Assembly (NCBI GenBank): GCA_963662545.2
Contig: CAXXLL010000002.1
Location: 320,001-384,000 of the forward strand
Direction of reading: 5' to 3'
DNA: 64,000 bases
From: Gammaproteobacteria bacterium
GTDB lineage: Bacteria; Pseudomonadota; Gammaproteobacteria; Ga0077536
Below, one piece after another: positions 3,404 to 60,107 of this stretch. The position numbers and the translations under genes were made by a program. The number at the start of each line of letters is the position of its first letter. The stretch's first letter is position 1. The notes beneath the pieces are model-generated. The model ran no database searches, was not told where the DNA came from, and worked only from the letters and a program-made list of their open reading frames with translations.

Positions 3404-3563
3404 CAGCCTGTCGGACTTAGGGAATCGTAGCGAGGCGGTTGGGAGAGCGGTCTGAGAGGTGTCATGGTTTGAGGTGAATAGTGGGTCTATTTAATGAGAA
3501 CCATGGCACATCTGGACCGCTATCCCAACGCCGTAGTAGATTCTTCCTAAGTCCGACAGGCTG
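3404..3563. mobile_element. MITE family B copy 1 (160 bp)
   Basis: TIR CAGCCTGTCGGACTTAGG / CCTAAGTCCGACAGGCTG; CTAG duplicated at 3400-3403 and 3564-3567; internal inverted arms; central AATAG-TGGGT-CTATT. Confidence 0.9.
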
Positions 3564-3624
3564 CTAGGCTGCGCTCCTTTCGCATCGGCGGTTGAGCCGG
3601 CAAGGCAGGGGAACGATCTGATTC

Positions 3625-4752
3625 ATGAACATACGGCTAGAGGCAATGGGCGATTCCCCTCGCGCTCGCTACGAGGCCGATCTGGCGGCTGGCGTCATTA
3701 CGGCGGATGCTGCTCAAAAGGGGGCGGTCGAGTGTCTGGAGCGCACCTATCGTGAATTAGCGGAAAGCGACGAGCAGGCGTCGGGCGGCCTCGTCCATCG
3801 CCTGTTCGGCCGTCGCCGTTCCCGCTGGTTACCGGTGCGCGGCGTCTATTTATGGGGCCGCGTCGGCCGCGGCAAAACGTATATCGTCGACACCTTTTAT
3901 GACTGCCTGGGTTTCAAGGAAAAGCGGCGGATTCATTTCCACAGCTTTATGCGGCGCACGCATGACGCCCTGAAACGATTGCACAACGAACCGAATCCAT
4001 TGAAACGCCTCGCCGCCGAGTGGGCGGCAGAGCACCGGGTGCTTTGCCTTGACGAATTTCACGTGGGCGATATCACTGATGCGATGCTGCTCGCCAAGCT
4101 GTTTGAGGCGCTCCTCGAGCATGGCGTGACTCTAGTCGCCACATCGAACGAAGCTCCTGAGGAGTTGTATGCCAACGGATTGCAGCGTGAACGGTTTCTT
4201 CCCGCTATTGAATTGATCAAGAAACAGCTCGAAGTTTTCGAGTTGAGCGGCGATCTGGATTACCGTTTGCGCGCGCTGGAACAGGCGCCCGTGTATTACC
4301 GGTGTGCGGCGGGCAAAGTGAGGGACAAGCTCGAAAAGAGTTTTTTGGCGATCGCGCCGGAAGCGGGCGCCGCCGCTGTCGAACTTGAGGTCGAAGGGCG
4401 GTGGATCCCGACCCTGCGGCTGGCGGACGGCGTCGTGTGGTTCGCCTTCGAGGTTCTTTGCGGCGGGCCGCGTTCGACCATCGACTATATCGAGATCGCG
4501 CGCTGCCATCACACGGTGATCGTCAGTGACGTACCGCGTCTGGGGCGCGACGATAACGACGCGGCCCGGCGCTTCGTTAATCTGGTCGACGAATTCTATG
4601 ACCGCAACGTCAACTTGATCGTCTCTGCGGAGGCCGAACCGGAGGATCTCTATCACGGGGGCCGCCTCGCGAAGGGATTTTTACGCACCGCCAGCCGGCT
4701 GCGTGAGATGCGGTCCCACGATTACCTTGCCAGGCCTCATATTACGGATTGA
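3625..4752 (+). CDS. zapE: AFG1/ZapE family ATPase
   Basis: GVYLWGRVGRGKT (Walker A), RIHFHSFM, LCLDEF (Walker B), ATSN, GLQRERFLP, RRFVNLVDEFYD. Confidence 0.93.
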   Translation: MNIRLEAMGDSPRARYEADLAAGVITADAAQKGAVECLERTYRELAESDEQASGGLVHRLFGRRRSRWLPVRGVYLWGRVGRGKTYIVDTFYDCLGFKEKRRIHFHSFMRRTHDALKRLHNEPNPLKRLAAEWAAEHRVLCLDEFHVGDITDAMLLAKLFEALLEHGVTLVATSNEAPEELYANGLQRERFLPAIELIKKQLEVFELSGDLDYRLRALEQAPVYYRCAAGKVRDKLEKSFLAIAPEAGAAAVELEVEGRWIPTLRLADGVVWFAFEVLCGGPRSTIDYIEIARCHHTVIVSDVPRLGRDDNDAARRFVNLVDEFYDRNVNLIVSAEAEPEDLYHGGRLAKGFLRTASRLREMRSHDYLARPHITD

Positions 4753-4797
4753 TGCCGGCAAAAATATCTATTAAATTCAATTGCTAATACTATTTAT

Positions 4798-4825
4798 TTG
4801 ACATTTTAAATTATCTAACTATTCT
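4798..4825 (+). promoter_or_regulatory. Putative sigma70 promoter
   Basis: TTGACA-N16-TATTCT inside a very AT-rich tract upstream of the small ORF; a TATAAT also occurs at 4831. Confidence 0.55.
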
Positions 4826-4870
4826 ATCTATATAATTGGTAGATGATTTGTACGGCAATCTGATCACGAG

Positions 4871-5095
4871 GTGCCGGTGTCAGACGAAATGGATATGCAA
4901 CTCGAACCCGTCACGATCAACGAACAGACCATTGCGCGGGCCATCGCGCGCCATTACGGCGACGGCGGTGTTTACATGCCCGACGACGCTAAACGGGTCG
5001 ACGCGATGAAACAGGCGGTCACCAACGGATTCGTCAGTGAAGACGGATTCCTGACCCGCAAGGGGCGGCGTCTGCTGGCGCGAGCCGAATTTTGA
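4871..5095 (+). CDS. Small hypothetical protein (66-74 aa depending on start)
   Basis: ORF lies between a promoter-like AT tract and an intrinsic terminator; C-terminus GFVSEDGFLTRKGRRLL. Confidence 0.7.
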   Translation: MPVSDEMDMQLEPVTINEQTIARAIARHYGDGGVYMPDDAKRVDAMKQAVTNGFVSEDGFLTRKGRRLLARAEF

Positions 5096-5141
5096 TACCT
5101 CCGTGGGTGAGTTGACAGGTCTATCCTGTCACCAGCGTATT

Positions 5142-5171
5142 AGGGCTGCTCTCGCAGCCCTCTTTTTTTTG
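5142..5171 (+). terminator. Rho-independent terminator
   Basis: AGGGCTGC-TCTC-GCAGCCCT stem-loop followed by a T9 tract. Confidence 0.85.
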
Positions 5172-5282
5172 GCATCTCGAAGAAAGCCGGCGCAGGACGG
5201 GTCACTTTGCATGTTTGCCGATTCCGTGTGAGGTACATCGGGCCTGCTCAAGATCCCTTGCACTGACGCCGACAAGAGACTG

Positions 5283-6638: not shown

Positions 6639-6666
6639 TCTGAACCGGCGTCATTGACGCCGTCGA

Positions 6667-6695
6667 CTTGAAATCGACCGATCGAGGGACCATTT
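6667..6695 (+). promoter_or_regulatory. Putative sigma32 (RpoH) promoter of lon
   Basis: CTTGAAA-N14-GACCATTT about 50 bp upstream of the lon ATG; matches the CTTGAAA-N13-17-CCCCATNT consensus. Confidence 0.7.
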
Positions 6696-6746
6696 GGATG
6701 GGGAAACCTCTGTGGCCCGTCGGGTATCGATGCCCGCCGAAAGATC

Positions 6747-9137: not shown

Positions 9138-9179
9138 AAATTTGCGACCTCTGTGGGTACCTATATGCTCCACTACCAG

Positions 9180-15361: not shown

Positions 15362-16435
15362 TTAATCGACCATCACATTCCGGGGTTCGTCTGCCACGAT
15401 TCTATTCCGGGCTCTGCGGAATTTCGATATCTCGTCGTAAATGACACGGCGCGCGCGACTGATCCCCCCGAGCGGCCGGTGCTCCGGAAGGACACGCCAG
15501 GGGTTGAAGGACAGATTTTCGCAAAACGCCATGCGGCCGGGTGAATCAAAAGTCTGTGCTGGAATCTCGATCTTCGCCACTGGAATAAAAGGCGAACGGC
15601 TTTCGCTCCATTCCCGGCTGGGGTCTTCAATCGGCATGGAAGCTGCATCGGATTGAAACTGCAGGGAAAACTCGAAGCAGGCATCGCCCGCCGCCAGCCG
15701 AGCGCCGAGTTGGCGTGCGAGAAAATCGTCCGGCGGTGTCTGCGGCAGGGGGGTGTTGGCGCGCGTACACGGGCTAGCACTGTATTTTACCGCACGGCCG
15801 TCACCGAACCGGTAAGCCACCATGCTGAACCAGCGAAGGTCGAGCAGATCGGCATGCCGCGCGAGCATCTCGCGGACGATCATGAAGGCCCGCAGGTGCG
15901 AATCGAAGGGATTGAAAAAAAACGACAGCGCGCGGTCGTCGGCGAAGGCCTCGAATGCCTGCGAGTAGGTCGCGACATCTGGAAACACGAACACCGGATG
16001 TGAGACCAGGAGGAAATCCTGGGTACGGGCATTCGGGTCAGGTTCGAACAACTTTGAACCATCCACTTCCAGGAGCTTAAGGGCCATGCCCCGGACGTCT
16101 GCTTCGATGTCCGCTTGGGGATCGGCGTTGTTGGAAAACCGGATCCATACCGGGTAGCTCGCGCCTGCTTGAAATACACCGACTTGCAGCTCGGCGGGTA
16201 AATCTGCATCGATGGCGAAGCTTCCATGCACGCAACCATGGTGTTTAGGGTGCGCCCCACGGCGTGTCAGTTCACCGCCATCACGCGCTTCGATGGCGTC
16301 CGTGAACATCGATACCACCCGTTCGATTTCGGCGGCTTCGCCTGGGGGCACGCGCTCTTCTGCGACGCCGGGCAGGTCTTGTTGGGAACAGGCGGCGAGA
16401 AAAATGAGGCTGCAGCTCAGGGCAATACCCGGCAT
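15362..16435 (-). CDS. Catalase-related heme lipoprotein (y4iL-like small catalase fold)
   Basis: Start reassigned to ATG 16435 (MPGIALSCSLIFLAAC lipobox); RRGAHPKHHGC distal His, RFSN, DVRGMALK, MPIED, LSFNPW, RPLGGISRARRVIY proximal Tyr. Confidence 0.88.
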   Translation of the reverse strand: MPGIALSCSLIFLAACSQQDLPGVAEERVPPGEAAEIERVVSMFTDAIEARDGGELTRRGAHPKHHGCVHGSFAIDADLPAELQVGVFQAGASYPVWIRFSNNADPQADIEADVRGMALKLLEVDGSKLFEPDPNARTQDFLLVSHPVFVFPDVATYSQAFEAFADDRALSFFFNPFDSHLRAFMIVREMLARHADLLDLRWFSMVAYRFGDGRAVKYSASPCTRANTPLPQTPPDDFLARQLGARLAAGDACFEFSLQFQSDAASMPIEDPSREWSESRSPFIPVAKIEIPAQTFDSPGRMAFCENLSFNPWRVLPEHRPLGGISRARRVIYDEISKFRRARNRIVADEPRNVMVD

Positions 16436-20919: not shown

Positions 20920-21081
20920 AGAACCTCTGAATAAGTCATGGCACATTTGCCTTGCCCATGAAATCGCGCAGATCTGTGTTAGGAACTTTGCCAATAGTCC
21001 CCGCTAGTGGCTGCAATTCGTGCCTTGATCTGCACTATTTCATAAACAATTCAGACGCACCTTGACTTATTCAGAGGTTCC
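20920..21081 (+). mobile_element. MITE family A copy 1 (162 bp)
   Basis: AGAACCTCTGAATAAGTCA...TGACTTATTCAGAGGTTCC with TTAA on both flanks. Confidence 0.92.
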
Positions 21082-23710: not shown

Positions 23711-24505
23711 ATGATCCAGTTCCCCAACCTTAACCCGGTCGCATTCGAAATAGGGCCGGTGGCAGTGCACTGGTATGGGATTACCTATATCGCGGGGATC
23801 GCGCTCGCCTGGCTTTACCTGCACAGGGGCGCCCGGTACGGCGTTGATGAATGGACCACCCAACAGGTCGACGACCTGGTTTTTTATGCGGCCTTGGGGG
23901 CCGTGCTGGGCGGCCGCGTCGGATACGTTATGTTCTACAATGCCGTCGCGTTTTTTGACGACCCGCTCTCAATATTTGCCGTATGGCATGGCGGCATGTC
24001 ATTTCACGGTGGCGCAGTGGGGCTCGTCCTCGCGATGTGGTGGTTCGCGCGCAGCCGCGGTATGCGATTTCTCGAGGTTACCGACTTCGTTTTACCCGCC
24101 GTGCCGATCGGGCTCGGACTCGGCCGGATCGCGAACTTCGTCAACCAGGAATTGTGGGGCGCAGCGACCGATCTGCCCTGGGGCGTGGTGTTCACCCATC
24201 CGGCAGCGGGCGGATGGGCGCGACACCCCTCACAGCTCTACGAGGCCCTGCTCGAAGGCTTATGCCTGTTCGTCATTCTGCGCCTGTTGCGCGCGCGCCG
24301 GCCGTCGGTCGGCATCGTATCGGCCTGGTTTCTCATCCTCTACGCGGTTTTTCGGGGCGCGGTAGAATTCGTGCGTGAACCCGACGCCCATATCGGCTAT
24401 ATCGGTTGGAACTGGCTCACCATGGGACAGCTACTGTCGGGACCGATGCTGATCGCGGGCATCGCCATCTTAATCCTGGCGCTGCGGCGCGAAGCTACTG
24501 ACTAA
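23711..24505 (+). CDS. lgt: Prolipoprotein diacylglyceryl transferase
   Basis: VHWYG, LGGRVGYV, GGMSFHGG, GRIANFVNQELWG, RHPSQLYEA; start ATG 23711. Confidence 0.97.
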   Translation: MIQFPNLNPVAFEIGPVAVHWYGITYIAGIALAWLYLHRGARYGVDEWTTQQVDDLVFYAALGAVLGGRVGYVMFYNAVAFFDDPLSIFAVWHGGMSFHGGAVGLVLAMWWFARSRGMRFLEVTDFVLPAVPIGLGLGRIANFVNQELWGAATDLPWGVVFTHPAAGGWARHPSQLYEALLEGLCLFVILRLLRARRPSVGIVSAWFLILYAVFRGAVEFVREPDAHIGYIGWNWLTMGQLLSGPMLIAGIAILILALRREATD

Positions 24506-24666
24506 GGAATCTCTGAAAAAGTCACGGCACATCTGCCTTGCCCATGAAATCGCGGAGCCTTACGTGACGAACCTTGCCATAGTCCCCGCTATGGCCTGCG
24601 ATTCGTGCCTTGATTCGCACCCTTGCATGAACCATTCAAACGCACCATGACTTATTCAGAGGTTCC
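24506..24666 (+). mobile_element. MITE family A copy 2 (161 bp), directly after the lgt stop
   Basis: Same TIRs; flanks CTAA (contains the lgt TAA) and TTAA. Confidence 0.92.
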
Positions 24667-24675: not shown

Positions 24676-25470
24676 ATGCAAACCTATCTCGATTTGATTC
24701 GCCACGTGCGAAATCACGGCAGCCGGAAGGATGACCGTACCGGGACCGGTACCTTGAGCGTCTTCGGGTACCAGATGCGATTCAAACTGGCCGACGGCTT
24801 TCCGCTGCTCACGACCAAGAGGGTCCACCTCAAATCGATCATCCACGAACTCATTTGGTTTCTCCGCGGTGAATCGAACGTGGCCTACCTGCGTGAACAC
24901 GGTGTGTCGATCTGGGACGAGTGGGCGGACGAGAACGGTGAACTCGGTCCCGTCTACGGCGTTCAATGGCGGTCGTGGCCTGGCGCGGACGGCACGGCCA
25001 TCGACCAGATCTCCCAGGTCATCGACGCTATCCGCAACGATCCGAATTCGCGCCGTCTGATCGTCAGCGCCTGGAACGTGGGCGAAGTCCCCCGCATGGC
25101 GCTGGCGCCGTGTCATACGTTGTTTCAGTTCTACATTGCGCAGGGAAAATTGTCGTGCCAGCTTTACCAGCGAAGCGCGGACATCTTTCTCGGGATCCCG
25201 TTCAACATCGCCTCGTATGCCCTGCTGACCATGATGATCGCGCAGGCTTGCGAACTCGAGGTCGGCGATTTCGTTCACACCTTGGGCGATGCCCACCTCT
25301 ATCTCAATCACCTGGAACAGGCGGATCTACAGCTCACGCGCGAACCTTTCGCCCCGCCCCACTTGAGGCTCAACCCGGATGTCACTTCGGTATTCGACTT
25401 CCGCTATGAAGATTTCGTGCTCGAAGGCTACGAAGCGCATCCGCCGATCGCGGCGCCGATCGCGGTTTGA
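24676..25470 (+). CDS. thyA: Thymidylate synthase
   Basis: [42 protein letters not shown]. Confidence 0.99.
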
Positions 25471-25632
25471 GGAAGCTCTGAAAAAGTCATGGCACATCTG
25501 CCTTGCCCATGAAATCGCGCAGCTCAGCGTTACGAACCTTGCCCATAGTCCCCGCTATGGCCTGCGATTCGTGCCTTGATCTGCGTGATTTCATGAACAA
25601 TTCAGACGCACCATGACTTATTCAGAGATTCC
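25471..25632 (+). mobile_element. MITE family A copy 3 (162 bp), directly after the thyA stop
   Basis: Same TIRs; flanks TTGA (contains the thyA TGA) and CTGA. Confidence 0.92.
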
Positions 25633-27032: not shown

Positions 27033-27194
27033 GGAACCTCTGAATAAGTCATAGTGCTTCTGAATTGTTCATGAAATTGCGTAGATCAAGGCACGAAGCG
27101 CAGGCCATAGCGGGGACTATTGGCAAGGTTCGTAACGCCGAGGTGCGCGATTTCAGGGGCAAGGCAGATGTGCCATGACTTATTCAGAGGTTCC
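27033..27194 (-). mobile_element. MITE family A copy 4 (162 bp, reverse orientation), directly after the apaG stop
   Basis: Same TIRs; TTAG duplicated at 27029-27032 and 27195-27198. Confidence 0.92.
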
Positions 27195-27575
27195 TTAGTG
27201 TAGCAAGTTCGGCGCGGAGAGTTTAAAGGCGGGAATTTCGGCATCGAAACGTACACCGTCGTCGGCCATCATTTCGTATGATCCGGTCATCGTGCCGACA
27301 GGCGTTTCGATCATCGCAGCACTGGTGTAGCGGAAAGTTCCACCAGGTTGGAGTATGGGCTGCTCGCCGACCACCCCTTCGCCTTTGACTTCCTGCACCT
27401 GGCCCGCAGCGTCGGTAATGATCCAGTGGCGATTTAACAACTGCGCGGTGATTGAACCCGAATTTTCGATCGTGATCGTGTAGGCGAATACGTACCGATC
27501 GGTTTCGGGATCGGATTGTTCTTCGACGTATACCGTGTCGACAGTCACGCGGATATTGTATTTTTCGTCATTCAT
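27195..27575 (-). CDS. apaG: ApaG protein
   Basis: YVFAYTITI, QLLNRHWIITD, GEGVVGEQP, GTMTGSY. Confidence 0.97.
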   Translation of the reverse strand: MNDEKYNIRVTVDTVYVEEQSDPETDRYVFAYTITIENSGSITAQLLNRHWIITDAAGQVQEVKGEGVVGEQPILQPGGTFRYTSAAMIETPVGTMTGSYEMMADDGVRFDAEIPAFKLSAPNLLH

Positions 27576-30677: not shown

Positions 30678-31028
<351 letters not shown>

Positions 31029-31079
31029 GAAAGGGTTGCGTCGTTGGTACCGCCCCCGAAACCCACGAGGATATAACCG

Positions 31080-32393
31080 ATGAAACGATTAAGCTTGGGG
31101 AAGGTCGTCATTGCCGTTCTTCTGCTTCTCGCAGCGGCCATGCCGAATATTGTAATTGCGCAAGAGACGCCGATGCTGGATTCCGGCGACACCGCCTGGA
31201 TGCTCACCTCGACGGCGCTGGTGTTGTTTATGACGATACCAGGACTTTCACTCTTCTACGCGGGCATGGTCCGATCCAAGAATGTGTTGTCGGTGATGAC
31301 CCAATGCTTTGCGATCACCTGCCTCGTGACAGTTCTGTGGACACTGTACCTGTACAGCCTTGCCTTCGGTGAAGATGTTAACGGAATCATTGGCGACCTT
31401 AGCAAGGTTTTTATGAGAGGGATCGGCCCTGAGACGCTCAGCGGCACTATTCCCGAGTCAGTGTTCTCCATGTTTCAACTGACTTTTGCGATCATTACTC
31501 CGGCCCTGATCGTCGGTGCGTTCGCCGAGCGCATGAAATTCTCCGCCTTACTGTGGTTCATGGCCCTTTGGGTTACTTTGGTTTACGCGCCGGTCGCGCA
31601 CTGGGTTTGGGGCGGCGGTTGGCTCGGTGACTACGGCGTCCTGGATTTCGCGGGCGGCACGGTGGTGCACATCAACGCCGGTATCGCCGGTCTGGTGGCG
31701 GCGTTGGTCTTGAGAAAACGGACCGGTTACCCCGGGACGCCAATGAAGCCGAATAATCTGGTACTGACGGTGGTCGGCGCCGCGATGTTATGGGTCGGTT
31801 GGTTCGGTTTCAATGCTGGCAGTGAACTGGCTGCTGATGGAACTGCTGGCATGGCCATGGCCGTAACGCAGATCGCCGCGGCGACCGCAGCGCTCACCTG
31901 GATGTTTTCAGAATGGCTTAGCCACGGTAAGCCAAGCGCTTTGGGAATGGTTTCAGGCGCCGTCGCGGGGCTGGTGGCCATTACGCCAGCGTCTGGTTTC
32001 GTCGGACCGATGGGCGCCCTGGCGATCGGCATTGCCGCGGGTTACGGTTGCTATCTGGCCGTTGTGAAGGTCAAGCGTACATTCGGTTATGACGACTCCC
32101 TCGATGTCTTCGGGGTACATGCCGTAGGCGGTATTATCGGGGCCATGCTGACCGGTGTGTTTGTCGACACGGGCCTTGGCGGCAGCGGCCTAGGGGACGG
32201 GATTACGATGCTTGCGCAGGTCGGCAAACAGTTCGTCGGTGTCGTGGTTACGATCGTCTACTGCGGATTCGTCAGTTTTATCGTTCTCAAGGGACTCGAA
32301 GCGACTATCGGCCTGCGTGTCATGGATGAAGAAGAAGAAATCGGGCTCGATCTGATCTTGCACGACGAACAGGGTTACAACATAGGGCTATAA
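31080..32393 (+). CDS. amtB: Ammonium transporter (copy 1)
   Basis: GDTAW, FQLTFAIIT, DFAGGTVVHINAG, WFGFNAGS, DDSLDVFGVH. Confidence 0.97.
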   Translation: MKRLSLGKVVIAVLLLLAAAMPNIVIAQETPMLDSGDTAWMLTSTALVLFMTIPGLSLFYAGMVRSKNVLSVMTQCFAITCLVTVLWTLYLYSLAFGEDVNGIIGDLSKVFMRGIGPETLSGTIPESVFSMFQLTFAIITPALIVGAFAERMKFSALLWFMALWVTLVYAPVAHWVWGGGWLGDYGVLDFAGGTVVHINAGIAGLVAALVLRKRTGYPGTPMKPNNLVLTVVGAAMLWVGWFGFNAGSELAADGTAGMAMAVTQIAAATAALTWMFSEWLSHGKPSALGMVSGAVAGLVAITPASGFVGPMGALAIGIAAGYGCYLAVVKVKRTFGYDDSLDVFGVHAVGGIIGAMLTGVFVDTGLGGSGLGDGITMLAQVGKQFVGVVVTIVYCGFVSFIVLKGLEATIGLRVMDEEEEIGLDLILHDEQGYNIGL

Positions 32394-32722
32394 AACAGGG
32401 TCGTACTGATCGCAGGGTGCGCGGGCCGTGTGGGTTCGTGCGCAACGATGGTCGGCATCAGGGTCCCCGGAGCGGATTAATTCGCGGCCGTCGACCTTGG
32501 CGAATGCCGCCTAGATGCCCGGGCCGCATTCGTCAACACCTGAACGTTTTCCACCACCGTCACGTGTGCTTACTTGAGGCGCTCAACGCGCCCCACCTTT
32601 TGAGTCCGGTCGACTGCGGAGGGGCCTAGGCAGTCCCGCAACCCGGCCGTTTCTGGCTCGGTTCGAAACAGGCGGCATTCCACGCCGAAATACGAGAGAA
32701 TTGCACCGACGCTGGGCTCTAG

Positions 32723-32942
32723 GAGCCTGTAGGGCATAGGATAAATCTACTGCGGCGGTGGGGAATCGGTCTAGTTTTCCGATCATTTTGTCGAGCGCAT
32801 TCAAGCGCTTCACCCTTTCAGGGCTTACGCGAAAATTCGTTCCCGACGAATTTATCGTTGAATAGTTAACGCTATTCGGCTCAAATGATCGAAAAGCTCA
32901 CCCCCACCTGCCTCACTACGATTCGCTATGCCCGACGGACTC
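32723..32942. mobile_element. MITE family B-related element (220 bp) carrying a nested ~65-bp insert
   Basis: Imperfect TIR GAGCCTGTAGGGCATAG / CTATGCCCGACGGACTC; CTAG on both flanks; ends similar to 3404-3563; apex GAATAG-TTAACG-CTATTC at 32860-32877. Confidence 0.8.
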
Positions 32943-32965: not shown

Positions 32966-33370
<405 letters not shown>

Positions 33371-33439
33371 TAAACGAGCGGGCCTGCTCCGGGGGCCCAA
33401 TGAAGATGCGGAACGAATAAGAGAAGGGGGGGAGCGATC

Positions 33440-34717
33440 ATGTCGCGATTTATGCTTTTATCGGCAATGCTGATTTTTCCGGCTGTTGCATCGGCCGATT
33501 CACTGGATACTGGAGATACCGCCTGGCTTCTGACGTCCACGGCGCTGGTGTTGCTCATGACCTTGCCGGGGCTCGCGCTGTTCTACGCGGGCCTCGTGCG
33601 GAGCAAGAACGCGCTTTCGATGTTAATGCAATGCTTTGCCCTGGCATGTCTTATGTCTCTTCTGTGGGTGGTGGCGGGTTACGGCATTGCTTTCGGGGAC
33701 GGCGCCGGACTCAATAAGTTCATCGGCACGGGCAATCTCTTGCTGACCGATGTCACGCGTGATTCGATGAGCGGAACAATCCCCGAATCCGTCTTCGTGA
33801 TGTTCCAGATGACGTTCGCGATCATCACCCCCGCGCTGATCTTGGGTGGGTTTGCCGAACGCATGAAGTTTTCGGCCGCCATTTTGTTCAGCGCGTTCTG
33901 GCTGCTCGCCGTCTATGCACCTGTGTGCCATTGGGTATGGGGCGGCGGCTGGCTTGCTGACATGGGCCTGCTGGATTTCGCGGGCGGGACGGTCGTCCAT
34001 ATCAACGCCGGCGTCGCCGCCATCGTCGCGGCATTGGTTTTGGGGAATCGGCGGGGTTTCCCCGAAACTGCGATGCCGCCGCACAATCTAACTTTAACCG
34101 TCGCCGGCGCCTCGATGCTGTGGGTCGGTTGGTTCGGCTTCAACGCCGGCAGCGCGATCGCGGCCAATGGCGATGCGGGCATGGCAATGCTGGTGACTCA
34201 CATTTCGGCCGCCGCGGCATCGCTGGCCTGGATGTCGGTCGAATGGATCAGGCACGGCAAGCCGAGCGTACTCGGGATCGTAACAGGCATGGTTGCAGGA
34301 CTCGGGACGATTACGCCGGCCTCCGGATACGTGGGCCCGGTCGGCGCGCTGTTCATCGGGATTTCGGCGGGCGTGGTCTGTTATTTCGCCACACAAACCA
34401 TCAAGCGGACGTTTCGCTTGGATGACTCTCTCGACGTTTTTCCCGTGCATGGAGTCGGCGGCATACTCGGCACGACACTTACGGGTGTATTCGTGGCGGA
34501 ACGCTTTGGCGGTGCCGGTTTGGCCGAGGGTACGACCATGATGGCGCAGGTGACAACCCAGGTGATCGGAGTCGTTGCGACGGTGGCCTGGTGCGGGGTA
34601 GTGACTTTCATACTGCTCAAAATCGTCGATGCGCTGGTCGGATTGCGTGTTTCCTCGGAAATAGAAACCAACGGCCTTGATCTCAGCGAGCACGACGAAC
34701 GCGGATACAATTTGTAA
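33440..34717 (+). CDS. amtB: Ammonium transporter (copy 2)
   Basis: GDTAW, DFAGGTVVHINAG, DDSLDVFPVH, C-terminal GLDLSEHDERGY. Confidence 0.96.
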   Translation: MSRFMLLSAMLIFPAVASADSLDTGDTAWLLTSTALVLLMTLPGLALFYAGLVRSKNALSMLMQCFALACLMSLLWVVAGYGIAFGDGAGLNKFIGTGNLLLTDVTRDSMSGTIPESVFVMFQMTFAIITPALILGGFAERMKFSAAILFSAFWLLAVYAPVCHWVWGGGWLADMGLLDFAGGTVVHINAGVAAIVAALVLGNRRGFPETAMPPHNLTLTVAGASMLWVGWFGFNAGSAIAANGDAGMAMLVTHISAAAASLAWMSVEWIRHGKPSVLGIVTGMVAGLGTITPASGYVGPVGALFIGISAGVVCYFATQTIKRTFRLDDSLDVFPVHGVGGILGTTLTGVFVAERFGGAGLAEGTTMMAQVTTQVIGVVATVAWCGVVTFILLKIVDALVGLRVSSEIETNGLDLSEHDERGYNL

Positions 34718-34959
34718 TCCGGCGTGATTACGGGCGATCTTTCAGGCCGATGAAGAACCCGGGATTTCGTGGACGTATAAAAAACCGTTCCCAAGTTCGG
34801 GGTGAATGAATACAATAAGCGGTTGAAATCGTAGCTCGAAGCGACACCGACGCGGCGGCGCTCAGGCCGACCGCGCCGGCTATGCACCGCCCGGGGAGCG
34901 CTGGTTCGAACCGCCTTGGAGCCTATCGGTATAGCCATCCACCGTAGTAGCGAACGGAT

Positions 34960-36033
34960 ATGTCAGACGGACAACTCGTAGATAAAAAAATCCTGAAAAC
35001 CCTGGTGCCGCCGAACGCACTTAACGCGGAGAATTTCCAGGAACTCGCGGGGAAGGCCTTCATCGAGGAATTCGGGCCCGGGAAGACGATATTCAAGGTT
35101 GGCGAGGTAGACCGCAAGACGACTTATCTTCTTGAAGGCGAAATTGTTTTGACGGATGGCGATGGAAAATCGACATCCATCCGCGGCGGTACTGACGCCG
35201 CCAAACACCCACTGGCGAACAACCAGCCGCGCAAACAGTCGGCGAAGACCAAGGGCGCTTGCAAGATCACGCGGTTCGACAGCGACCTCCTGGATATCCT
35301 CTTGACCTGGGACCAGCTCTCCGGCATCGAAGTCGCCGAGATTTCGGTCGACGAAAACGGCGAAGACGCAAGCGATAGCGGTGATTGGATGACGCGCATC
35401 CTCCAATCTCAGGCATTCTTGCAAGTGCCTCCGGCGAATATCCAGGCGATGTTCATGCGCATGCAGGAAGTGCCCAAGAGCGCGGGTGAGGCCGTCATCA
35501 AGCAGGGCGAAGATGGCGATTACTACTACATCATCAAGCACGGCAAGGCCAAGGTTACGCGCGCCTCGAAGACCGGCGCTGAATTGACGCTGGCAACGCT
35601 CAAGGACGGTGATGCCTTCGGTGAAGAAGCACTTCTGTCCGAGGCCAAGCGCAATGCGACCATTACCATGGAGACCGAGGGCATGTTGATGCGTCTCTCC
35701 AAGGAGGACTTCAATGCCCTGCTAAAGGAGCCGATGCTCAGCTGGTTGACGCTTACCGAGGCCATGGAGCGGGTGGTCGCCGGTGCGAAGCTGCTCGACG
35801 TTCGACTCGAGAGCGAGCATTCGAATTCGGGCCTCGAGGGCGCCATGAACATTCCCCTGTTCATGCTGCGGCTCAAGGCCGATAGCCTGGACCCGAACAC
35901 ACCCTATATCGTTTATTGCGATACCGGCCGGCGCAGTTCGGCGGCGGCCTTTTTGTTGAGCGAGCGCGGATTTGAAACCTACGTGCTCCAGGGGGGCTTG
36001 ATGGAGCAGGCAGAAAACGCGCCTGCGGCCTGA
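34960..36033 (+). CDS. Tandem cyclic-nucleotide-binding domains plus C-terminal rhodanese domain
   Basis: IFKVGE..TYLLEGE; IKQGEDGDYYYII..FGEEALL..RNAT; LLDVR, IVYCDTGRRS, LQGG. Confidence 0.85.
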   Translation: MSDGQLVDKKILKTLVPPNALNAENFQELAGKAFIEEFGPGKTIFKVGEVDRKTTYLLEGEIVLTDGDGKSTSIRGGTDAAKHPLANNQPRKQSAKTKGACKITRFDSDLLDILLTWDQLSGIEVAEISVDENGEDASDSGDWMTRILQSQAFLQVPPANIQAMFMRMQEVPKSAGEAVIKQGEDGDYYYIIKHGKAKVTRASKTGAELTLATLKDGDAFGEEALLSEAKRNATITMETEGMLMRLSKEDFNALLKEPMLSWLTLTEAMERVVAGAKLLDVRLESEHSNSGLEGAMNIPLFMLRLKADSLDPNTPYIVYCDTGRRSSAAAFLLSERGFETYVLQGGLMEQAENAPAA

Positions 36034-36069
36034 GAATAATCAGCCCCGCTGCTAGTGCTAGTGCTCCAA

Positions 36070-36229
36070 CAACCAGTCGAACACAGTAAGTATTGACTTG
36101 GGCGCTGACACAGCGGCCCAGACGCGCCATGGTCTTCGTTAAATAGACCCACTATTCTCCGCAAACCATGACACCCGTTCTCTCGCTCTCTCACGTGTCT
36201 CGCTACGAATCCCTAAATCAGACAGGCTG
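36070..36229 (-). mobile_element. MITE family B copy 2 (160 bp, degenerate, reverse of copy 1)
   Basis: Aligns essentially without gaps to the reverse complement of 3404-3563 (core CCATGG..TTAAATAGACCCACTATT..AAACCATGACACC); ends GACAGGCTG then CTAG. Confidence 0.85.
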
Positions 36230-36233
36230 CTAG

Positions 36234-36490
36234 CCCGCATATTGCATGAAGGCGGCCGGGGCGCTCCGAGAAGTTATTGAGCGAACAGGAATAACTAGGC
36301 CATTCGACGATGTTCAAGCAAGTCGCAATCTGTACAGCCGCTTGTGGCCTACGACGGCGCCCGCTGGTCCATGCACGCCTGGACTCAGGTCAAGCCCTCG
36401 CCATAGCTACAGCTCAGACTCGAGCTCCAGACCGGCGTCCAGACGCTCCTGTCCTGCGCCGGCACCGCCGTTCTTCATGCAATATGCGGG
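36234..36490. mobile_element. MITE family C (257 bp)
   Basis: Perfect 18-bp TIR CCCGCATATTGCATGAAG / CTTCATGCAATATGCGGG; CTAG at 36230-36233 and 36491-36494. Confidence 0.9.
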
Positions 36491-36516
36491 CTAGCCTGCG
36501 TCGGTTTTAATCCGCA

Positions 36517-37374
36517 GTGTCCCGATGGTTCTCAAGCCGCGAATCTGACGCCGACTATTTCTGCGTGATCGGGAGCCCGATCGAACACAGTAAATCGCCG
36601 TTGATCCACGCGGCTTTTGCCGCCCAGACAGGCCGCGAACTGGTTTACGACCGGGTGGAGGTTTTACCCGGCCAGCTAGCAGCCGCCGTCACCGAATTTC
36701 GTGGCGTCGGCGGGCGGGGCATGAACGTAACGGTGCCACTGAAGCAAGAGGCCTTTGCGCTAACTGAGCGGCGAATGGAACGGGCGGAGGAGGCGGGCGC
36801 CGCAAATACGCTCTGGTTCGACGAAAATGGCGCTGTCGTCGCCGACAACACCGACGGCAGCGGGCTCATGCGCGATCTCGAATTCAATCAAGGCATTGCG
36901 CTCGTAGGAAAGCGACTATTACTGATCGGCGCGGGGGGCGCTGCCCGCGCGGTCGTGCCGGCCCTGGCCGCCGCTGCGCCTGCGGCACTTGTCATCACGA
37001 ATCGAACGGAACACAAGGCGACGGCGATTGCCAAGGCGTTCGCACACCGCGCGACGATCGAAACCTTGCCCTGGGGGGCCGATTTAGCCGAGCCCTTCGA
37101 CATCGTCGTCAATGCGACTTCTCTCAGTCTCCAGGGTGAACTGCCTGCGATCTCTAAACGCTGCGTGCATTCCGGAACAGTGTGCTACGACATGATGTAT
37201 GCGAACGAACCGACGGTGTTCGAGACTTGGGCGCGGGCCGCGGGAGTCGCGCACGCATTCGATGGGCTCGGCATGCTGGTCGAGCAGGCAGCCGAGGCTT
37301 TTCTTGCCTGGTATGGCGTCAGGCCTGAAACCGCGGCAGTGATCGCTCAAATTCGGGCATCGCTGGCAGCTTAG
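36517..37374 (+). CDS. aroE: Shikimate dehydrogenase
   Basis: IGSPIEHSKSPLIH, GMNVTVPLK, AANTL, DNTDG, GAGGAARA, NATS, YDMMY, GLGMLVEQAAEAF. Confidence 0.96.
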   Translation: MSRWFSSRESDADYFCVIGSPIEHSKSPLIHAAFAAQTGRELVYDRVEVLPGQLAAAVTEFRGVGGRGMNVTVPLKQEAFALTERRMERAEEAGAANTLWFDENGAVVADNTDGSGLMRDLEFNQGIALVGKRLLLIGAGGAARAVVPALAAAAPAALVITNRTEHKATAIAKAFAHRATIETLPWGADLAEPFDIVVNATSLSLQGELPAISKRCVHSGTVCYDMMYANEPTVFETWARAAGVAHAFDGLGMLVEQAAEAFLAWYGVRPETAAVIAQIRASLAA

Positions 37375-37430: not shown

Positions 37431-37592
37431 GGAACCTCTGAAGGGTTCATGGTGGGTCTGAATGGTTCATGCAATGGTGCAGGTCAAGGCACGAATCGCA
37501 GGCCATAACGGGGATTAGGGCTAAGGTTCGTCGGTTAAGGCTCCGCGATTTCATGGGCAAGGCAGATGGGCCATGACTTATTCAACGGTTCC
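37431..37592 (-). mobile_element. MITE family A copy 5 (162 bp, reverse)
   Basis: Same TIRs; TTAG on both flanks; 6 bp from the dctM stop. Confidence 0.92.
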
Positions 37593-39451: not shown

Positions 39452-39613
39452 GGAACCTCTGCATAAATCATGGCCCATCTGCCTTGCCCATGAAATGGCG
39501 GAGCCTTACGTTACGAACCTTAGCCATAGTCCCCGTTATGGCCGGCGATTCGTGCCTTGATCTGCACCATTGCATGAACGATTCAGACGCACCATGACGT
39601 ATTCAGAGGTTCC
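39452..39613 (+). mobile_element. MITE family A copy 6 (162 bp)
   Basis: Same TIRs; TTAG on both flanks. Confidence 0.92.
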
Positions 39614-39944: not shown

Positions 39945-40024
39945 TGCGGGCCGACCTGCGGCGCGACTTGATATCAGCCAGTTGCCGTGTCTGGTTGAGC
40001 CCCTGTATTCGATTCACCGGCTGA

Positions 40025-40185
40025 GGAACTCTGCATAAGTTATGGCACACCTGCGTTACTCCTGAAATCGCGGAGCCTTACGTTACGAATCTTAGCCCTA
40101 GTCCCCGCTCAGGTCTGCGATTCGTGCCTTGATCGGCACGATTTCATGCACCATTCACCCGCACCATAACTTTTTCAGAGGTTCC
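40025..40185 (+). mobile_element. MITE family A copy 7 (161 bp, diverged), abutting the rsmA stop
   Basis: GGAACTCTGCATAAGTTATGG...CCATAACTTTTTCAGAGGTTCC; flanks CTGA / CTAA. Confidence 0.88.
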
Positions 40186-40983
40186 CTAAGCGCCGTGCGG
40201 TTTTCGCTGGTAGATGATCTGGGCGAGGCAGACGAAATTTTCGACCGATAGCTTTTCCGCACGTGAGCCCGGGTCGATCCCGCACCGTGCGAAGTCCGGG
40301 GCGCTGACATGCCCGGCGAGCGTATTGGCCAGGGTCTTGCGCCGGGCGGAAAACGCCGTGCGTAGGAGTTCAGCCAGGCACCGGTCGAATTCTGCATCGC
40401 CGGGGTCTTCACGGGGCCGAATCTCTATGACGGCAGAGTCTACCCTGGGCGGCGGCTGAAAGCTTTCGGGACCGATGTCCAGGTGCCGGATCACGTCGCA
40501 GCGGTGCTGGATGATGACACTGAGGCGACCATAAGCCTTGGTTCCGGGTTCTGCGCAGAGTCGCTCGGCGACTTCTTTTTGCAGCATCAGGATCATGCAG
40601 CTGAACAAGTCGGCGTGCTCGAGCAAGCGCGTGATCAGCGGTGTCGAAATATTGTAGGGGAGGTTACCGCAGACCTTCCAGGCGCGCGCTCGTCCACCGA
40701 GCTGTTTGAAGTCGAATCGGAGGATGTCGCCGGTATGCAGGGTGAAGCCGGTTGCGCCTGCAAATCGTTCTTCGAGCCGTGCCGCGAGCTGCCGGTCGAT
40801 TTCGACAGCCAGTAGCTCCGCCCCCGAGGCGAGCAGGTGCTCGGTCAGCACACCGCCGCCCGGCCCGATTTCGAGTACGCGATCAGTCGAGGTCGGGGAG
40901 ACGAGATTGACGATTTCGTCGATGACGAAAGAATCCACGAGGAAATGTTGGCCAAACCGCTTGCGCGTAATGTGGGCTTTCAT
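40186..40983 (-). CDS. rsmA: 16S rRNA m6(2)A dimethyltransferase KsgA
   Basis: RKRFGQHFL, EIGPGGG, EIDR, GNLPYNIST, MLQKEVAER, PPPRVDSAV. Confidence 0.97.
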   Translation of the reverse strand: MKAHITRKRFGQHFLVDSFVIDEIVNLVSPTSTDRVLEIGPGGGVLTEHLLASGAELLAVEIDRQLAARLEERFAGATGFTLHTGDILRFDFKQLGGRARAWKVCGNLPYNISTPLITRLLEHADLFSCMILMLQKEVAERLCAEPGTKAYGRLSVIIQHRCDVIRHLDIGPESFQPPPRVDSAVIEIRPREDPGDAEFDRCLAELLRTAFSARRKTLANTLAGHVSAPDFARCGIDPGSRAEKLSVENFVCLAQIIYQRKPHGA

Positions 40984-55354: not shown

Positions 55355-55384
55355 CAACCAGAGGGTCAAACTGGTTACACCAGG

Positions 55385-55951: not shown

Positions 55952-55976
55952 CTCACAGCTTCCCCGTCCGTCTCGT

Positions 55977-57062: not shown

Positions 57063-57257
57063 AAATTCGTGTCCTTTCCAGAATCGCATTTTACACCATC
57101 GGTCGAGACTCTCGCTGCTGCTTATCCTTAGGAAGCGGCAACGGTTATGTCCTTGATGGAGCCGCAAACACCCCGGATGGTTGACACGGCATCGCAGGGT
57201 CTTCTCCGGTGGCAGCTGATCAGCAGGGACGGACGGGCAAATAACCAGGTTTTCCAC

Positions 57258-57304
57258 CAGCCTGATAAACTGCGCTCCTCGAAGTTCAAGGGTCCGACAG
57301 GCTG
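57258..57304. repeat. Remnant of a family-B end
   Basis: GTCCGACAGGCTG followed by CTAA (57292-57308), identical to the family B TIR; only a short CAGCCTG partner at 57258. Confidence 0.45.
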
Positions 57305-57355
57305 CTAATCACAAGCCCATCAATAAACCCTGCAACCGCGTCCAGTTCCACCGCC

Positions 57356-59377
57356 ATGTCCGAGCAAAAGCGAAAAATTCTCGTCACCAGCGCGCTACCC
57401 TACGCCAATGGGCCGATACACATCGGCCACCTGGTCGAATACATACAGACCGATATCTGGGTCCGATTTCAGAAAATGCAGGGACACGAGTGTTACTACG
57501 TGTGTGCCGACGATGCTCACGGCACGCCGATCATGCTCAAAGCGGAGCAGGAAGGAGTGACGCCGGAGCAGCTCATCGAGCGTGTCGGTGCGAGCCATCG
57601 CCGGGATTTCGACGACTTTGGCATCGAATTCGACAACTATTATTCGACGCATACGGACGAAAATCGCGAGTTCGCCGAACTGATCTACACGCGCCTTCGC
57701 GATAAGGGCTTCATTTCAAAGCGCACGATTCGGCAGGCTTTCGATCCGCTCAAACAGATGTTCCTGCCGGATCGTTTCATTCGGGGCACGTGTCCGCGCT
57801 GCAAATCACCGGATCAATATGGCGACAGCTGTGAAGTCTGCGGCGCTACCTACGCGCCGACGGATTTGCTCGATCCCGTGTCGGCCTTGAGCGGTGTGAC
57901 GCCCGAGCTCAAGGAATCGGAGCACCTCTTTTTCACCCTGGGTGCTTTCGAGAATATGCTGAAGGATTGGCTCGCTAATCATGACCTGCAGCGAGGCGTC
58001 GTCAACAAGCTGAGCGAATGGTTCGAAGTGGGATTACAGGACTGGGACATATCACGGGACGCGCCGTATTTCGGATTCGAGGTACCGGATCATCCAGGTA
58101 AATTCTTCTACGTATGGCTAGACGCTCCGATCGGGTATCTCGCGAGCTTCAAGAACCTGTGCGTGCGCAAAGGCTTGGATTTCGAGGCCTTTTGCGGCAA
58201 GGACAGCACAGCCGAGATGGTCCACTTCATCGGCAAGGACATCATGTATTTCCACACGCTGTTCTGGCCGGCGATGCTGTACGGCGCGGATTTCAGGCTG
58301 CCTTCCAATGTCTTTGTTCATGGCTTTCTCACCGTCGAGGGGACGAAGATGTCCAAGGCGCGAGGCACTTTTGTTGCGGCCCGTACTTATCTGGAGCACC
58401 TGAATCCGGAGTATCTGCGTTATTACTTTGCCGCCAAATTGAATGCGGCCATCGAAGACATCGATTTGAATCTCGAGGATTTCGAGGCGCGGGTGAATGC
58501 GGACATGGTCGGCAAGGTCGTCAATATCGCCAGCCGCTGCGCGGGATTCCTGAGCAAGCGTTTCGACGGCGAACTCAGTGCCGAAATAGATGCACCCGAG
58601 CTGTTGGCGCAGTTTCAGGAAGCGGCGGATTCGATCGCGCGCAAATACGAAGCGCGGGAGTACGGCCGCGCCATGCGTGAGATCATGGGGCTGGCCGACA
58701 GCGCCAATCAGTACATCGACAAACGCCGTCCGTGGGTCATCGCCAAGGAAACATCGCGCGCCTCGGAACTACGGCAGGTCTGCAGCATGGGTATCTACCT
58801 TTTCAGGATCTTGATGGTGTATCTGAAACCCGTACTGCCGATTACCTGCCGCAACGCCGAAATCTTTCTCGGCGGCGCAGAGCTTGATTGGACCGATGCG
58901 CAGAACATACCGGACGAACTGCGGATCCAAAAATTCAAACCGCTGATGCAGCGCGTCGATGGAGATAAAGTCAGACAGATGATTGAAGCGAGCAAAGAAC
59001 AAGACGCAGCCGGCGACGAAAATGCCGAAGCGGGCGGCGGCATTTTCGAGCCGGAGATCAGCATCGAAGAATTCGCGCGTATCGATTTGCGCGTTGCCCG
59101 GATACAAGACGCGCGCCACGTCGAGGGCGCAGACAAACTGATCCAGTTGGTACTCGATGTCGGCAGCGAGGAAAGGCAGGTATTCGCCGGAATCAAGCAG
59201 GCCTATGAGCCGGAAACCCTGATCGGGCGTCAGGTGGTCATGGTGGCGAATCTCGCGCCGCGCAAGATGCGGTTCGGGGTGTCGCAGGGCATGGTATTAG
59301 GCGCCGGTCCCGGCGGAAAGGACATCTTTCTCCTCGAACCCGATACCGGCGCCGTGCCCGGCATGCGGGTGAAGTAG
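57356..59377 (+). CDS. metG: Methionine--tRNA ligase
   Basis: [13 protein letters not shown], zinc knuckle, WDISRD, KMSKA, C-terminal tRNA-binding domain. Confidence 0.99.
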
Positions 59378-59387
59378 CCCAGATCAG

Positions 59388-59945
59388 GTGGCCGGAACGA
59401 TGACAGGGGGGCTGACCGGCGACATCATCCTGGTCTATCTGATCGGTCTGTGTCCTGCACTGGCGCTATCCCGCAACTTCGATGCTGCATTGGGATTGGG
59501 TGCCGTCACGATCATCATGGCGCCCCCCGCCGCCTTAATCGGCTATTGGATCGCATCGACGCAAAGCCATGTGATCGTCGTGTTACCGCTGATAATAGCA
59601 GGACTGTTCATTTCAATATTCTATTCAGCGAAACTGCTCGAAATCTTTCTGCGCAAGGTTCATGGTCTACTGGAAGCCACTGTGCCGCTGATGGCCGTCA
59701 ACTGCACGTTACTGGGCATCGTTCTGATTTCCGCCAATGCCGCCGCCGGCGCCGCCGGCGCAACTCTCTACGCTTTATCGCTGGCCTGCGGCTACGCTTT
59801 GGTACTCGCCGTGTTCTCTCAATTGCGCGAGCGCTTGCTTGGCTCCGACGTCCCTAGTCCGTTTCGAGACGCGCCGGTCGCGCTGATCACCCTAGGTATC
59901 ATCGCGCTTGCCCTGTTCGGTTTTACGGGAATGCGAACACTTTAA
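59388..59945 (+). CDS. rsxA: Rnf/Rsx subunit A (divergent)
   Basis: IGLCPAL, PLMAVNCTLLG, RERLLGSDVPSPFRDAPVALITLG. Confidence 0.85.
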   Translation: MAGTMTGGLTGDIILVYLIGLCPALALSRNFDAALGLGAVTIIMAPPAALIGYWIASTQSHVIVVLPLIIAGLFISIFYSAKLLEIFLRKVHGLLEATVPLMAVNCTLLGIVLISANAAAGAAGATLYALSLACGYALVLAVFSQLRERLLGSDVPSPFRDAPVALITLGIIALALFGFTGMRTL

Positions 59946-60107
59946 GGAACCTCTGAATAAGTCATGGCCCATCTGCCTTGCCCATGAAATCGCGGAGCCT
60001 TACGTTACGAACCTTAGCCCTAATCCCGGTATGGCCTGCGATTCGTGCCTTGTATCTGCACCATTGCATGAACCATTCAGACGCACGATGACTTATTCAG
60101 AGGTTTC
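59946..60107 (+). mobile_element. MITE family A copy 8 (162 bp), directly after the rsxA stop
   Basis: Same TIRs; left flank TTAA contains the rsxA TAA. Confidence 0.92.

Follow-up and report, generated by a model that had tools for sequence, protein, structure and literature searches.

The window described here, a 64,000-nt stretch of contig CAXXLL010000002.1 from a gammaproteobacterium (assembly GCA_963662545.2), carries 12 copies of short mobile repeats that fall into three families, designated A, B, and C (Table 1). The stretch has a G+C content of 58%, and the repeats are surrounded by housekeeping genes, namely, uvrA, lgt, thyA, folA, apaH/apaG-like genes, two glnK-amtB pairs, aroE, dctQM, rsmA, metG, and rnfAB. 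The elements are miniature inverted-repeat transposable elements, or MITEs, with inverted ends, 4-bp target duplications, and dispersed copies that are polymorphic between genomes. They are 154 to 257 bp long and have no transposase gene inside; the only open reading frame (ORF) of at least 80 amino acids within any element lies in C (36246 to 36494), and a Pfam scan of 23 window ORFs finds no transposase. The 12 stretches should be annotated as mobile repeats and not as regulatory RNAs or terminators. An initial annotation had proposed that three families with unrelated ends share one design, a rod of ∼160 bp with a small hairpin at its apex (here called the tip). Such rods with a tip at the midpoint are found in A and B; C is neither a rod nor tipped.

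Families, Ends, and Target Sites

The degenerate end of family A was used to scan genome contigs and yields at least 49 loci (L numbers). Among the loci listed, 40 stem from one metagenome-assembled genome (MAG), Pseudomonadota bacterium XB_MAG1169; the others belong to Candidatus Thiodiazotropha, Candidatus Endoriftia, two further gammaproteobacterial MAGs, Nitrospiria, Pyrinomonadaceae (two loci), Terracidiphilus, and Chloroflexota. Locus L043 of XB_MAG1169 is syntenic with window positions 16102 to 41922, with 85 to 95% identity per block and ∼91% overall, which allows a direct test of the presence or absence of the window copies.

The A end motif matches the window 14 times with up to 2 mismatches, compared to 0.02 matches expected, and yields eight copies of 161 to 162 bp with terminal inverted repeats of about 22 nt. 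The motifs of B and C show 3 and 2 matches, with inverted repeats of about 24 nt in B and 18 perfectly matching nucleotides in C. The eight A copies listed in the initial annotation are therefore borne out, as are a 160-bp family B with its own ends, now with a second copy, and the ends of C, which delimit a single 257-bp element. An nhmmer profile built from the eight window copies of A and run on the window and the loci listed finds 61 distinct A-type regions, 47 of them full length, including two orthologous pairs shared by the window and L043.

The orthologous sites of L043 lack five of the eight A copies (A2, A3, A5, A6, and A7), and A1 and A4 are present there. At the empty sites, L043 contains a single TTAG (A6), CTGA (A3), or TTAA (A7), and in the window this target stands at either side of the copy, which reveals a 4-bp duplication. 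The mobility of the A, B, and C repeats thus leads to intergenic spacers that differ between two closely related genomes. The targets duplicated by A are TTAG, TTAA, and CTAA, also CTGA or TTGA, and are YTAR-like. The flanks of B and C consist of CTAG, replaced in some copies by CTAA or GTAG, variants that are expected of decaying duplications and not of element sequence.

TABLE 1 Positions and features of the 12 mobile elements in the window (fold z, folding score with DNA parameters; dG, folding free energy with DNA parameters)
Element	Length (bp)	Positions	Strand	Fold z	Features
A1	162	20920..21081	+		TTAA/TTAA flanks; divergent genes on either side; same site filled in L043 (4693-4854)
A2	161	24506..24666	+		lgt/thyA spacer; begins right after the lgt stop codon; orthologous L043 site without a copy
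A3	162	25471..25632	+	-10.0	thyA/folA spacer; best rod of the eight, dG -45.4; empty site in L043 GGTCTGAGCG, filled site in window GGTTTGA-[A3]-CTGAGCC
A4	162	27033..27194	-		apaH-like/apaG spacer; TTAG/TTAG flanks; found in L043 (10001-10162)
A5	162	37431..37592	-	-2.2	TTAG/TTAG flanks; decayed hairpin; missing from L043
A6	162	39452..39613	+	-3.4	Empty site in L043 CCTTTAGCG, filled site in window CCTTTAG-[A6]-TTAGCG; 4-bp TTAG duplication
A7	162	40024..40185	+	-3.7	Adjoins the stop codon of an rsmA-like gene; empty site in L043 GGTTAAGCG, filled site in window GGCTGA-[A7]-CTAAGCG
A8	162	59946..60107	+		rnfA-like/rnfB-like spacer, directly after the stop codon
B1	160	3404..3563	+	-14.0	CTAG/CTAG flanks; perfect 18-nt ends; nearly perfect rod, dG -55.5
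B1 tip		3477-3491			AATAG-TGGGT-CTATT
B2	160	36070..36229	-	-1.3	77% identical to B1; hairpin largely decayed
Long B variant	about 220	about 32723..32942	-		Degenerate; ends approximate; orthologue in L043 (13460-13692)
C1	257	36234..36490	+	-4.0	Perfect 18-nt ends; CTAG/CTAG flanks; inserted in the CTAG flanking B2; not a rod; without a tip hairpin

YTAR is the target of the IS5 group, and the combination of own inverted repeats with a duplicated YTAR-like 4-bp target is the pattern of IS5-group transposases supplied in trans. The A end, GGAACCTCTGAATAAG, is identical to the end of IS5A from Escherichia coli K-12 (NC_000913.3), GGAAGGTGCGAATAAG, in 12 of the first 16 bases; over 22 bases, 14 are identical to the two annotated IS5A ends. 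The ends of the other families show no resemblance to IS5. The likeness of A to the IS5 subgroup noted in the initial annotation therefore stands, with YTAR-like duplications in A, B, and C alike. Judged by its ends and duplications, A is a putative substrate of an IS5-family DDE transposase.

Two further families, D and E, were uncovered by a self-BLAST search blind to the tip motif. The sample of 589,854 nt consists, once overlaps are trimmed, of the window and the loci of the MAG and excludes nine loci from other organisms. D elements, from the related genome, comprise 154 to 157 bp, with ends TGTGCCGTCCCG... and CTAG or CTAA flanks; their tip, GCGTAG-CGGGCT-CTACGC, lies within about 2 nt of the midpoint. 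E elements measure about 135 bp and have an A+T-rich center without the TAG..CTA motif.

The same A-type end of 19 to 22 nt is found on small elements of distant phyla among the loci listed. The elements of Nitrospiria (L044 8139-8297) and Thiodiazotropha (L004 797-956), with lengths of 159 to 160 bp, have a central block of ∼50 nt in common with A. Other elements combine the A-type end with different cores and lengths, namely, those of Pyrinomonadaceae (L017 10001-10214; 214 bp), Chloroflexota (L047; 76 bp), and Terracidiphilus (L025).

The degenerate long variant of B matches the 224- to 226-bp B variants L028 9545-9770, L008 6603-6828, and L040 43-266. These long variants contain about 66 extra nucleotides just 3′ of the tip hairpin, which form three further small hairpins (AAATTCGT..ACGAATTT, CCCCGCAGGGG, and GCGC..GCGC) and lead to a multibranched center instead of a simple rod. 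A reading of B as a 30-bp palindrome with an A-like element inside it was considered and rejected; every B copy shows the same outer ends flanked by CTAG (or the variants CTAA and GTAG), which indicates that B moves as one unit.

The gene context of family A was derived from a simple gene call based on G+C content at third codon positions (GC3), which reproduced the Pfam-supported window genes. None of the 47 full-length copies is located inside a gene; 25 stand between co-directional genes, 7 between convergent genes, and 6 between divergent genes, and 9 contexts are unclear. At least 16 of the 47 adjoin a stop codon without a spacer, the duplicated target being the stop codon itself (in the window, 24503-24505, 25468-25470, 27195-27197, 40186-40188, and 59943-59945). 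In these cases, the gene retains its stop codon and the element starts with the next base. The target contains TAA, TAG, or TGA, which explains the many copies on stop codons and makes family A a clean case of MITEs landing there.

Rod Folding and Its Upkeep

Folding with DNA parameters shows z scores between −2.2 and −10.0 for the eight A copies. A3 and B1 form continuous hairpins from the ends to the small tip, the fold is largely lost in A5, A6, A7, and B2, and in C, only the ends hold the structure together. The complementary internal words quoted in the initial annotation are present, and the self-complementarity of A and B indeed reaches beyond the terminal inverted repeats.

The alignment of family A comprises 46 of the 47 full-length copies; the 135-bp element at L040 4570-4704 and 14 partial or diverged regions were left out. 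From these copies, RNAalifold recovers no more than small local helices besides the ends and the tip (−15.7 kcal/mol) and gives no full rod, for which reason the A3 rod was counted as the named structure. In this structure, 87.9% of the alignment cells pair, compared to 86.6% after shuffling (0 of 500 shuffles reach the observed value) and 32 to 39% in slid controls. Pairs changed on both sides number 14, against 7.5 ± 1.7 in shuffled alignments (0/500). The B alignment, built from 8 canonical copies without the 4 long variants and the fragments, contains 8 such double-changed pairs, against 3.0 ± 1.4 (1/500). The strongest signal comes from four A-type elements of three organisms (A3, one MAG copy, and the Thiodiazotropha and Nitrospiria elements), with 84.4% paired cells versus 78.2% shuffled and 11 double-changed pairs versus 5.4 ± 1.4 (0/500). 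In L004 of Thiodiazotropha and L044 of Nitrospiria, the ends and the center of ∼50 nt are conserved, and the arms between them are diverged yet complementary. The covariation on which the initial annotation made its proposal depend is therefore present in A and B, and the data support upkeep of the rod over time in both families and also among three diverged lineages of A type.

A simulation in which the A consensus was randomly mutated as often as each copy differs from it (60 replicates each) points in the same direction. More stable than the simulated mean are 37 of the 46 copies, with a mean difference of −6.7 kcal/mol (Wilcoxon P = 1.9e-8). Divergence from the consensus does not predict the loss of stability (rho = 0.20; P = 0.17). 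Since the A consensus mixes subfamilies, the simulation reflects the propagating lineages and not selection on resident copies. Old resident copies decay, which speaks against a need of the host for each of them.

Individual copies show how complementarity may be restored. In L039 2639-2799, TGCGA is replaced by AAGG, resulting in an 18-bp perfect center; L020 1474-1635 has changed from CC to GG on one arm and from GAA to CCG on the other; and in L027 4062-4223, a change from TC to CT occurs together with one from GA to AG. Template switching at quasi-palindromes yields multibase changes that copy one arm onto the other and requires no selection. From the multibase complementary clusters, we infer that hairpin-templated correction contributes to the upkeep of the rod; selection for transposition-competent palindromes may add to it. 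Long hairpins in these families are thus maintained with changes that resemble hairpin-templated correction and not stepwise selection.

Several observations concern the integrity of A-type palindromes. Internal deletion derivatives of A of about 47, 52, 78, and 135 bp keep both ends (L005 10001-10052, L021 1383-1460, L031 14618-14656, L046 3338-3376, and L040 4570-4704), as is expected of an unstable long palindrome. The A4 orthologues (27033-27194 in the window and 10001-10162 in L043) differ by a block diagnostic of two A subfamilies, GCGCACCTCGGCG versus GCGGAGCCTTACG, which suggests gene conversion between dispersed copies.

The Tip Hairpin and Its Possible Origins

In A, with 162 positions, the tip loop is centered at 81.5, and in B, with 160 positions, at 81. 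For A, the initial annotation had given the apex as CCATAG-TCCCCG-CTATGG; the hairpin exists, and the consensus over 46 copies is CCAATAG-TCCCCG-CTATTG, with the CCATAG/CTATGG form in the minority. The placement of the apex ∼80 bp from the end, cited as a shared trait, holds as the midpoint in A and B and adds nothing beyond a rod of about 160 bp. Of five tip examples put forward, two independent ones stand. The hairpin at 32860, GAATAG-TTAACG-CTATTC, is not a separate case but the tip of the degenerate long B variant, and the supposed degenerate apex of C at 36403, ATAG-CTACAG-CTCA, has no counterpart in structure, as neither C1 nor the other near-full C copy, in L014, contains a tip hairpin.

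A TAG-loop-CTA hairpin occupies the midpoint in three of the five families (A, B, and D), which have unrelated ends and lengths of 154 to 162 bp. A and B share 5 bp of the tip (AATAG/CTATT), and all of A, B, and D share 3 bp (TAG/CTA). Outside repeats, TAG/CTA closes only 8 of 2,620 small perfect hairpins (0.3%); the apex is thus commoner than in random palindromes, as the initial annotation had supposed. With this background, a match of at least two of the four other families to A has a probability of about 6e-5; uniform triplets give 1.4e-3, and the test is post hoc. The rarity of TAG..CTA in background hairpins indicates that the shared tip is nonrandom. The tip motif and the common length of A, B, and D form a real, modestly interesting but unexplained resemblance. 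Should complete genomes confirm that three families unlike in their ends share a rare tip, the question would arise of what, besides its ends, a MITE needs for its spread.

Searches for further traces of the tip cover about 760 kb. No MITE-like free-standing tip was found with ATAG..CTAT in this sample, in which six sites were folded; outside A and B, the pattern occurs at a handful of scattered single sites, with two full AATAG..CTATT matches. The wider pattern of the center is confined to A and D in the sample searched. A homology of the A and D centers seen by eye (CCTTG..TAG..CTA..GCCTTG) was rejected because alignments and profile are not significant. A and B have an exact 13-mer in common, CATGGCACATCTG (P < 0.002 by shuffling), at noncorresponding positions: in A, it covers bases 18 to 30, next to the end (window 20937-20949, etc.), and in B1, bases 98 to 110 in the inner right arm (3501-3513). 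Two weak leads connect the centers with IS5. Bases 10 to 22 of the IS5 end, AATAAGCGGGGA, resemble the other strand of the A tip, AATAGCGGGGA (P = 0.07), and bases 56 to 71 from the same end match B bases 58 to 74 at 15 of 16 positions, with a P value of 0.008 before correction for 12 tests. On this sequence basis, the element centers might be inherited from subterminal insertion sequence (IS) regions.

Two single copies show alterations of the tip itself. The tip of the A-type element L026 10001-10178 carries a 16-nt duplication. The 207-bp A-type element of Candidatus Endoriftia (L037 1338-1544) contains an insert of ∼52 nt that precisely separates AATAG from the CT..T side of the tip and ends in TAG.

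The reading preferred here, with a probability of roughly 70%, is that of nonautonomous IS5-type MITE families whose hairpins are partly template corrected and whose tip goes back to descent and to hybrids. Each family, with its own inverted repeats, inserts into YTAR-like 4-bp targets and duplicates these, IS5-group transposases presumably acting in trans. A, B, and D are quasi-palindromes of 154 to 162 bp that fold into one long hairpin and are kept up in propagating lineages, where arm-to-arm (template-switch) copying may correct the hairpin while individual old copies decay. The shared tip derives in part from common descent, with the hairpin at 32860 as a member of B and the Thiodiazotropha and Nitrospiria elements as A-type. 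For the other part, MITEs that nest in or abut each other at their YTAR sites would form hybrids; arm-to-arm copying could then make a hybrid symmetrical, with new ends on both sides and the old unpaired loop region inherited. The tip would be kept while the ends differ because the loop region is the one part that cannot be homogenized.

Contacts of this kind are found repeatedly, as each insertion brings fresh YTAR sites. In addition to C1 beside B2, A, a B fragment, and D adjoin at L018 4372-4797, A and D adjoin at L007 10001-10333, and E is located inside B, beside the tip, at L028 11716-12076. An A-D hybrid is present at L018 13346-13562. We infer a hybrid-plus-symmetrization origin for the tip shared by A, B, and D.

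Several results weigh against the template-corrected IS5-type MITE reading. The hybrid model leaves the lengths of A, B, and D, which agree within 8 bp, unaccounted for. Homology between the centers of A, B, and D is not significant, either by local alignment (P = 0.16 to 0.9) or in central windows (P = 0.07 to 0.9), and with a profile of the A center, no copy of B or D exceeds its 100 shuffled versions. The 8 copies of D show no excess of double changes (5 versus 4.8; 291 of 500 shuffles). The shuffles ignore relatedness, and the A and B signal may partly consist of a few events inherited by subfamilies. The sample contains no full-length IS whose ends belong to one of the five types. A credible long pair of ends is likewise lacking, the single 759-bp match being judged to be two separate small elements; no IS-sized repeat occurs in about 590 kb, a plasmid collection contains no match to A, B, or the A end, and inspection of the ORF lists of 8 loci by eye shows no transposase-like ORFs beside solo ends. 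The missing parent IS is weak evidence either way, since most of the sample is a short-read MAG, and assemblies of this kind usually miss IS copies. The literature accepts type II MITEs for which no parent is known (PMC10969869).

A different explanation regards the ∼160-bp rod with its (A/G)TAG-loop-CTA(T/C) tip as a putative functional cis-module that families unlike in their ends would have gained or retained because propagation needs it. It could be a site for a host or transposon protein, nucleate a cruciform or single-stranded DNA hairpin that joins the ends, or act as an RNA-processing signal. The position of the motif no more than about 2 nt from the midpoint in A (162 bp), B (160 bp), and D (154 to 157 bp) fits this idea, as do the low background frequency with its post hoc probability and the conservation of ends and central ∼50 nt in L004 and L044, where the diverged arms are still complementary. 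Loops vary in length (4 to 6 nt) and sequence on a retained stem, as would fit recognition of a hairpin and not of duplex DNA. Nevertheless, C and E lack the tip, and the elements of Pyrinomonadaceae, Chloroflexota, and Terracidiphilus have the A-type end without the core, which is thus not needed by every such element. Within A, the tip decays like the rest (CTAAT..GTTAT in A5), no free-standing MITE-like case of the motif occurs in the about 760 kb searched, and the wider center pattern is limited to A and D; from these sequence comparisons, a cis-module appears unlikely. The same low likelihood applies to a transposase-independent palindromic chassis of ∼155 to 162 bp with a dyad tip, reused by several IS5-type transposases and crossing phyla (Gammaproteobacteria and Nitrospiria), in which MITE lineages might keep the core while swapping terminal repeats and the core might serve as a cruciform or single-stranded DNA hairpin or bind a protein.

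Somewhat unlikely, too, is that the shared tip and length reflect coincidence and ascertainment, the motif having been chosen after looking. Just 3 bp are common to A, B, and D, whose center homology is not significant, and two of the five initial examples have dissolved. Any palindromic MITE has some small central hairpin, and 150 to 170 bp is a common size: published examples include Correia elements, bcr1 (about 155 bp), RPE (about 150 bp), and RU-2 (168 bp) (PMC3184786, PMC10969869, PMC2759123). Chance has to contend with the scarcity of TAG..CTA hairpins in the background, with the 5 bp shared by A and B, and with D, which was found blind to the motif and then showed GTAG..CTAC at its midpoint. 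A host RNA function, with the rods kept as mRNA stabilizers or RNase III/E processing sites within operons, has a small chance of being correct. A copies do occupy operon spacers after stops (lgt/thyA/folA, rnfA/rnfB, and apaH/apaG), and Correia and ERIC elements provide a published precedent (PMC10969869). The orientation of A in the 25 co-directional contexts, 15 same versus 10 opposite, is not significantly biased, as expected if only a symmetric hairpin matters, but neutral insertion equally gives this result. Old copies lose the fold (A5, A6, A7, and B2), and the absence of 5 of 8 copies from a ∼91%-identical genome indicates that these sites can do without them. Four A copies were scanned and contain neither promoter-like nor terminator-like sites, and Rfam gives no match at the gathering score; a subthreshold match of B1 to MIR7127, a plant microRNA (31 bits versus a cutoff of 100; E value of 0.064), was judged to be chance.

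It is highly improbable that RAYT, an IS200/IS605-like tyrosine transposase, and not a DDE enzyme, moves the elements as REPIN-like doublets in the form of single-stranded hairpins. Transposition of the RAYT/IS200 type is not known to make a target duplication, in contrast to the 4-bp duplications confirmed here by empty sites, and the terminal inverted repeats are long and IS5-like. The long hairpins, the GTAG in the D tip, and the CGTAG in the B ends would suit such a mechanism, GTAG-tagged palindromes being given as RAYT substrates in two reports (PMC3733652, PMC3116915). RAYT was not seen among the 23 window ORFs scanned, in a survey without a search aimed at RAYT.

Comparison with Known Elements and Differences between the Genomes

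Compared with described systems, the families belong to an ordinary kind of bacterial element, and the families themselves appear to be new. The "undescribed class of structured mobile elements" of the initial annotation is too strong a term, as MITEs that fold like rods and undergo compensatory change are known from earlier accounts. IS5 of E. coli and the IS5 group have 12 of the first 16 end bases and the 4-bp YTAR-like duplication in common with A; a difference is that the elements here have no transposase gene between their ends. The families are seemingly unreported, with no paper found that pairs a MITE with Endoriftia or Thiodiazotropha in a search outside of which lay most subscription journals and ISfinder.

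The target duplication of Correia elements is TA, and their ends are unrelated to those of the elements here, which duplicate a 4-bp YTAR-like target and have a TAG-loop-CTA hairpin as their center. By eye and without a tool scan, no element center matches the consensus of integration host factor (IHF), WATCAANNNNTTR. In other respects, the Correia/NEMIS elements of Neisseria are similar, being nonautonomous and intergenic, about 100 to 155 bp long, and co-transcribed, with inverted ends, a long hairpin, and a specific central motif, the IHF site, according to two accounts (PMC10969869, PMC3184786). The same sources name the IHF site in Correia elements and a methyltransferase site in Caulobacter repeats as central functional motifs of some MITEs and treat folding into a long stable stem-loop as a classic MITE feature, with compensatory change described (PMC3184786, PMC10969869).

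The bcr1 elements of the Bacillus cereus group and the enterobacterial ERIC/RU elements, of about 127 to 168 bp, also have a fold kept by compensatory changes and lose stability in some copies (PMC3184786, PMC2759123). They differ in hosts, ends, and duplications (5 bp in bcr1), and bcr1 forms two stem-loops compared to the single rods of A and B. QMITE2 of Coxiella burnetii is a hairpin of ∼190 bp with a core GTAG palindrome targeted by IS1111 (PMC10969869). The tip region of the elements here also draws insertions, as seen for E in B at L028 and for the 52-nt insert in L037. QMITE2 differs in its duplications of 7 to 9 bp and its unrelated sequence, and no IS110-family element is seen here. 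REPINs are not known to have terminal inverted repeats plus target duplications and depend on RAYT; the target duplications shown by empty sites set the present elements apart. Common to both are many intergenic symmetric hairpins, in REPINs with pairing that evolves within the genome, according to one report (PMC3116915).

Two differences from L043 lie beside elements in the window. The 1.77-kb stretch from 34752 to 36522 is missing from the syntenic L043 and represents an indel between both genomes; it carries a gene for a cyclic nucleotide monophosphate (cNMP)-binding/rhodanese protein (34960-36033), B2, and C1 and has the short direct repeat CCGATG at its bounds. Positions 30681 to 32393 and 33032 to 34717 contain tandem pairs of P-II (glnK-like) and ammonium transporter genes with about 70 to 72% DNA identity. 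The first amtB (about 31115-32524) is absent from L043, and the degenerate long B element is located between both glnK-amtB pairs.

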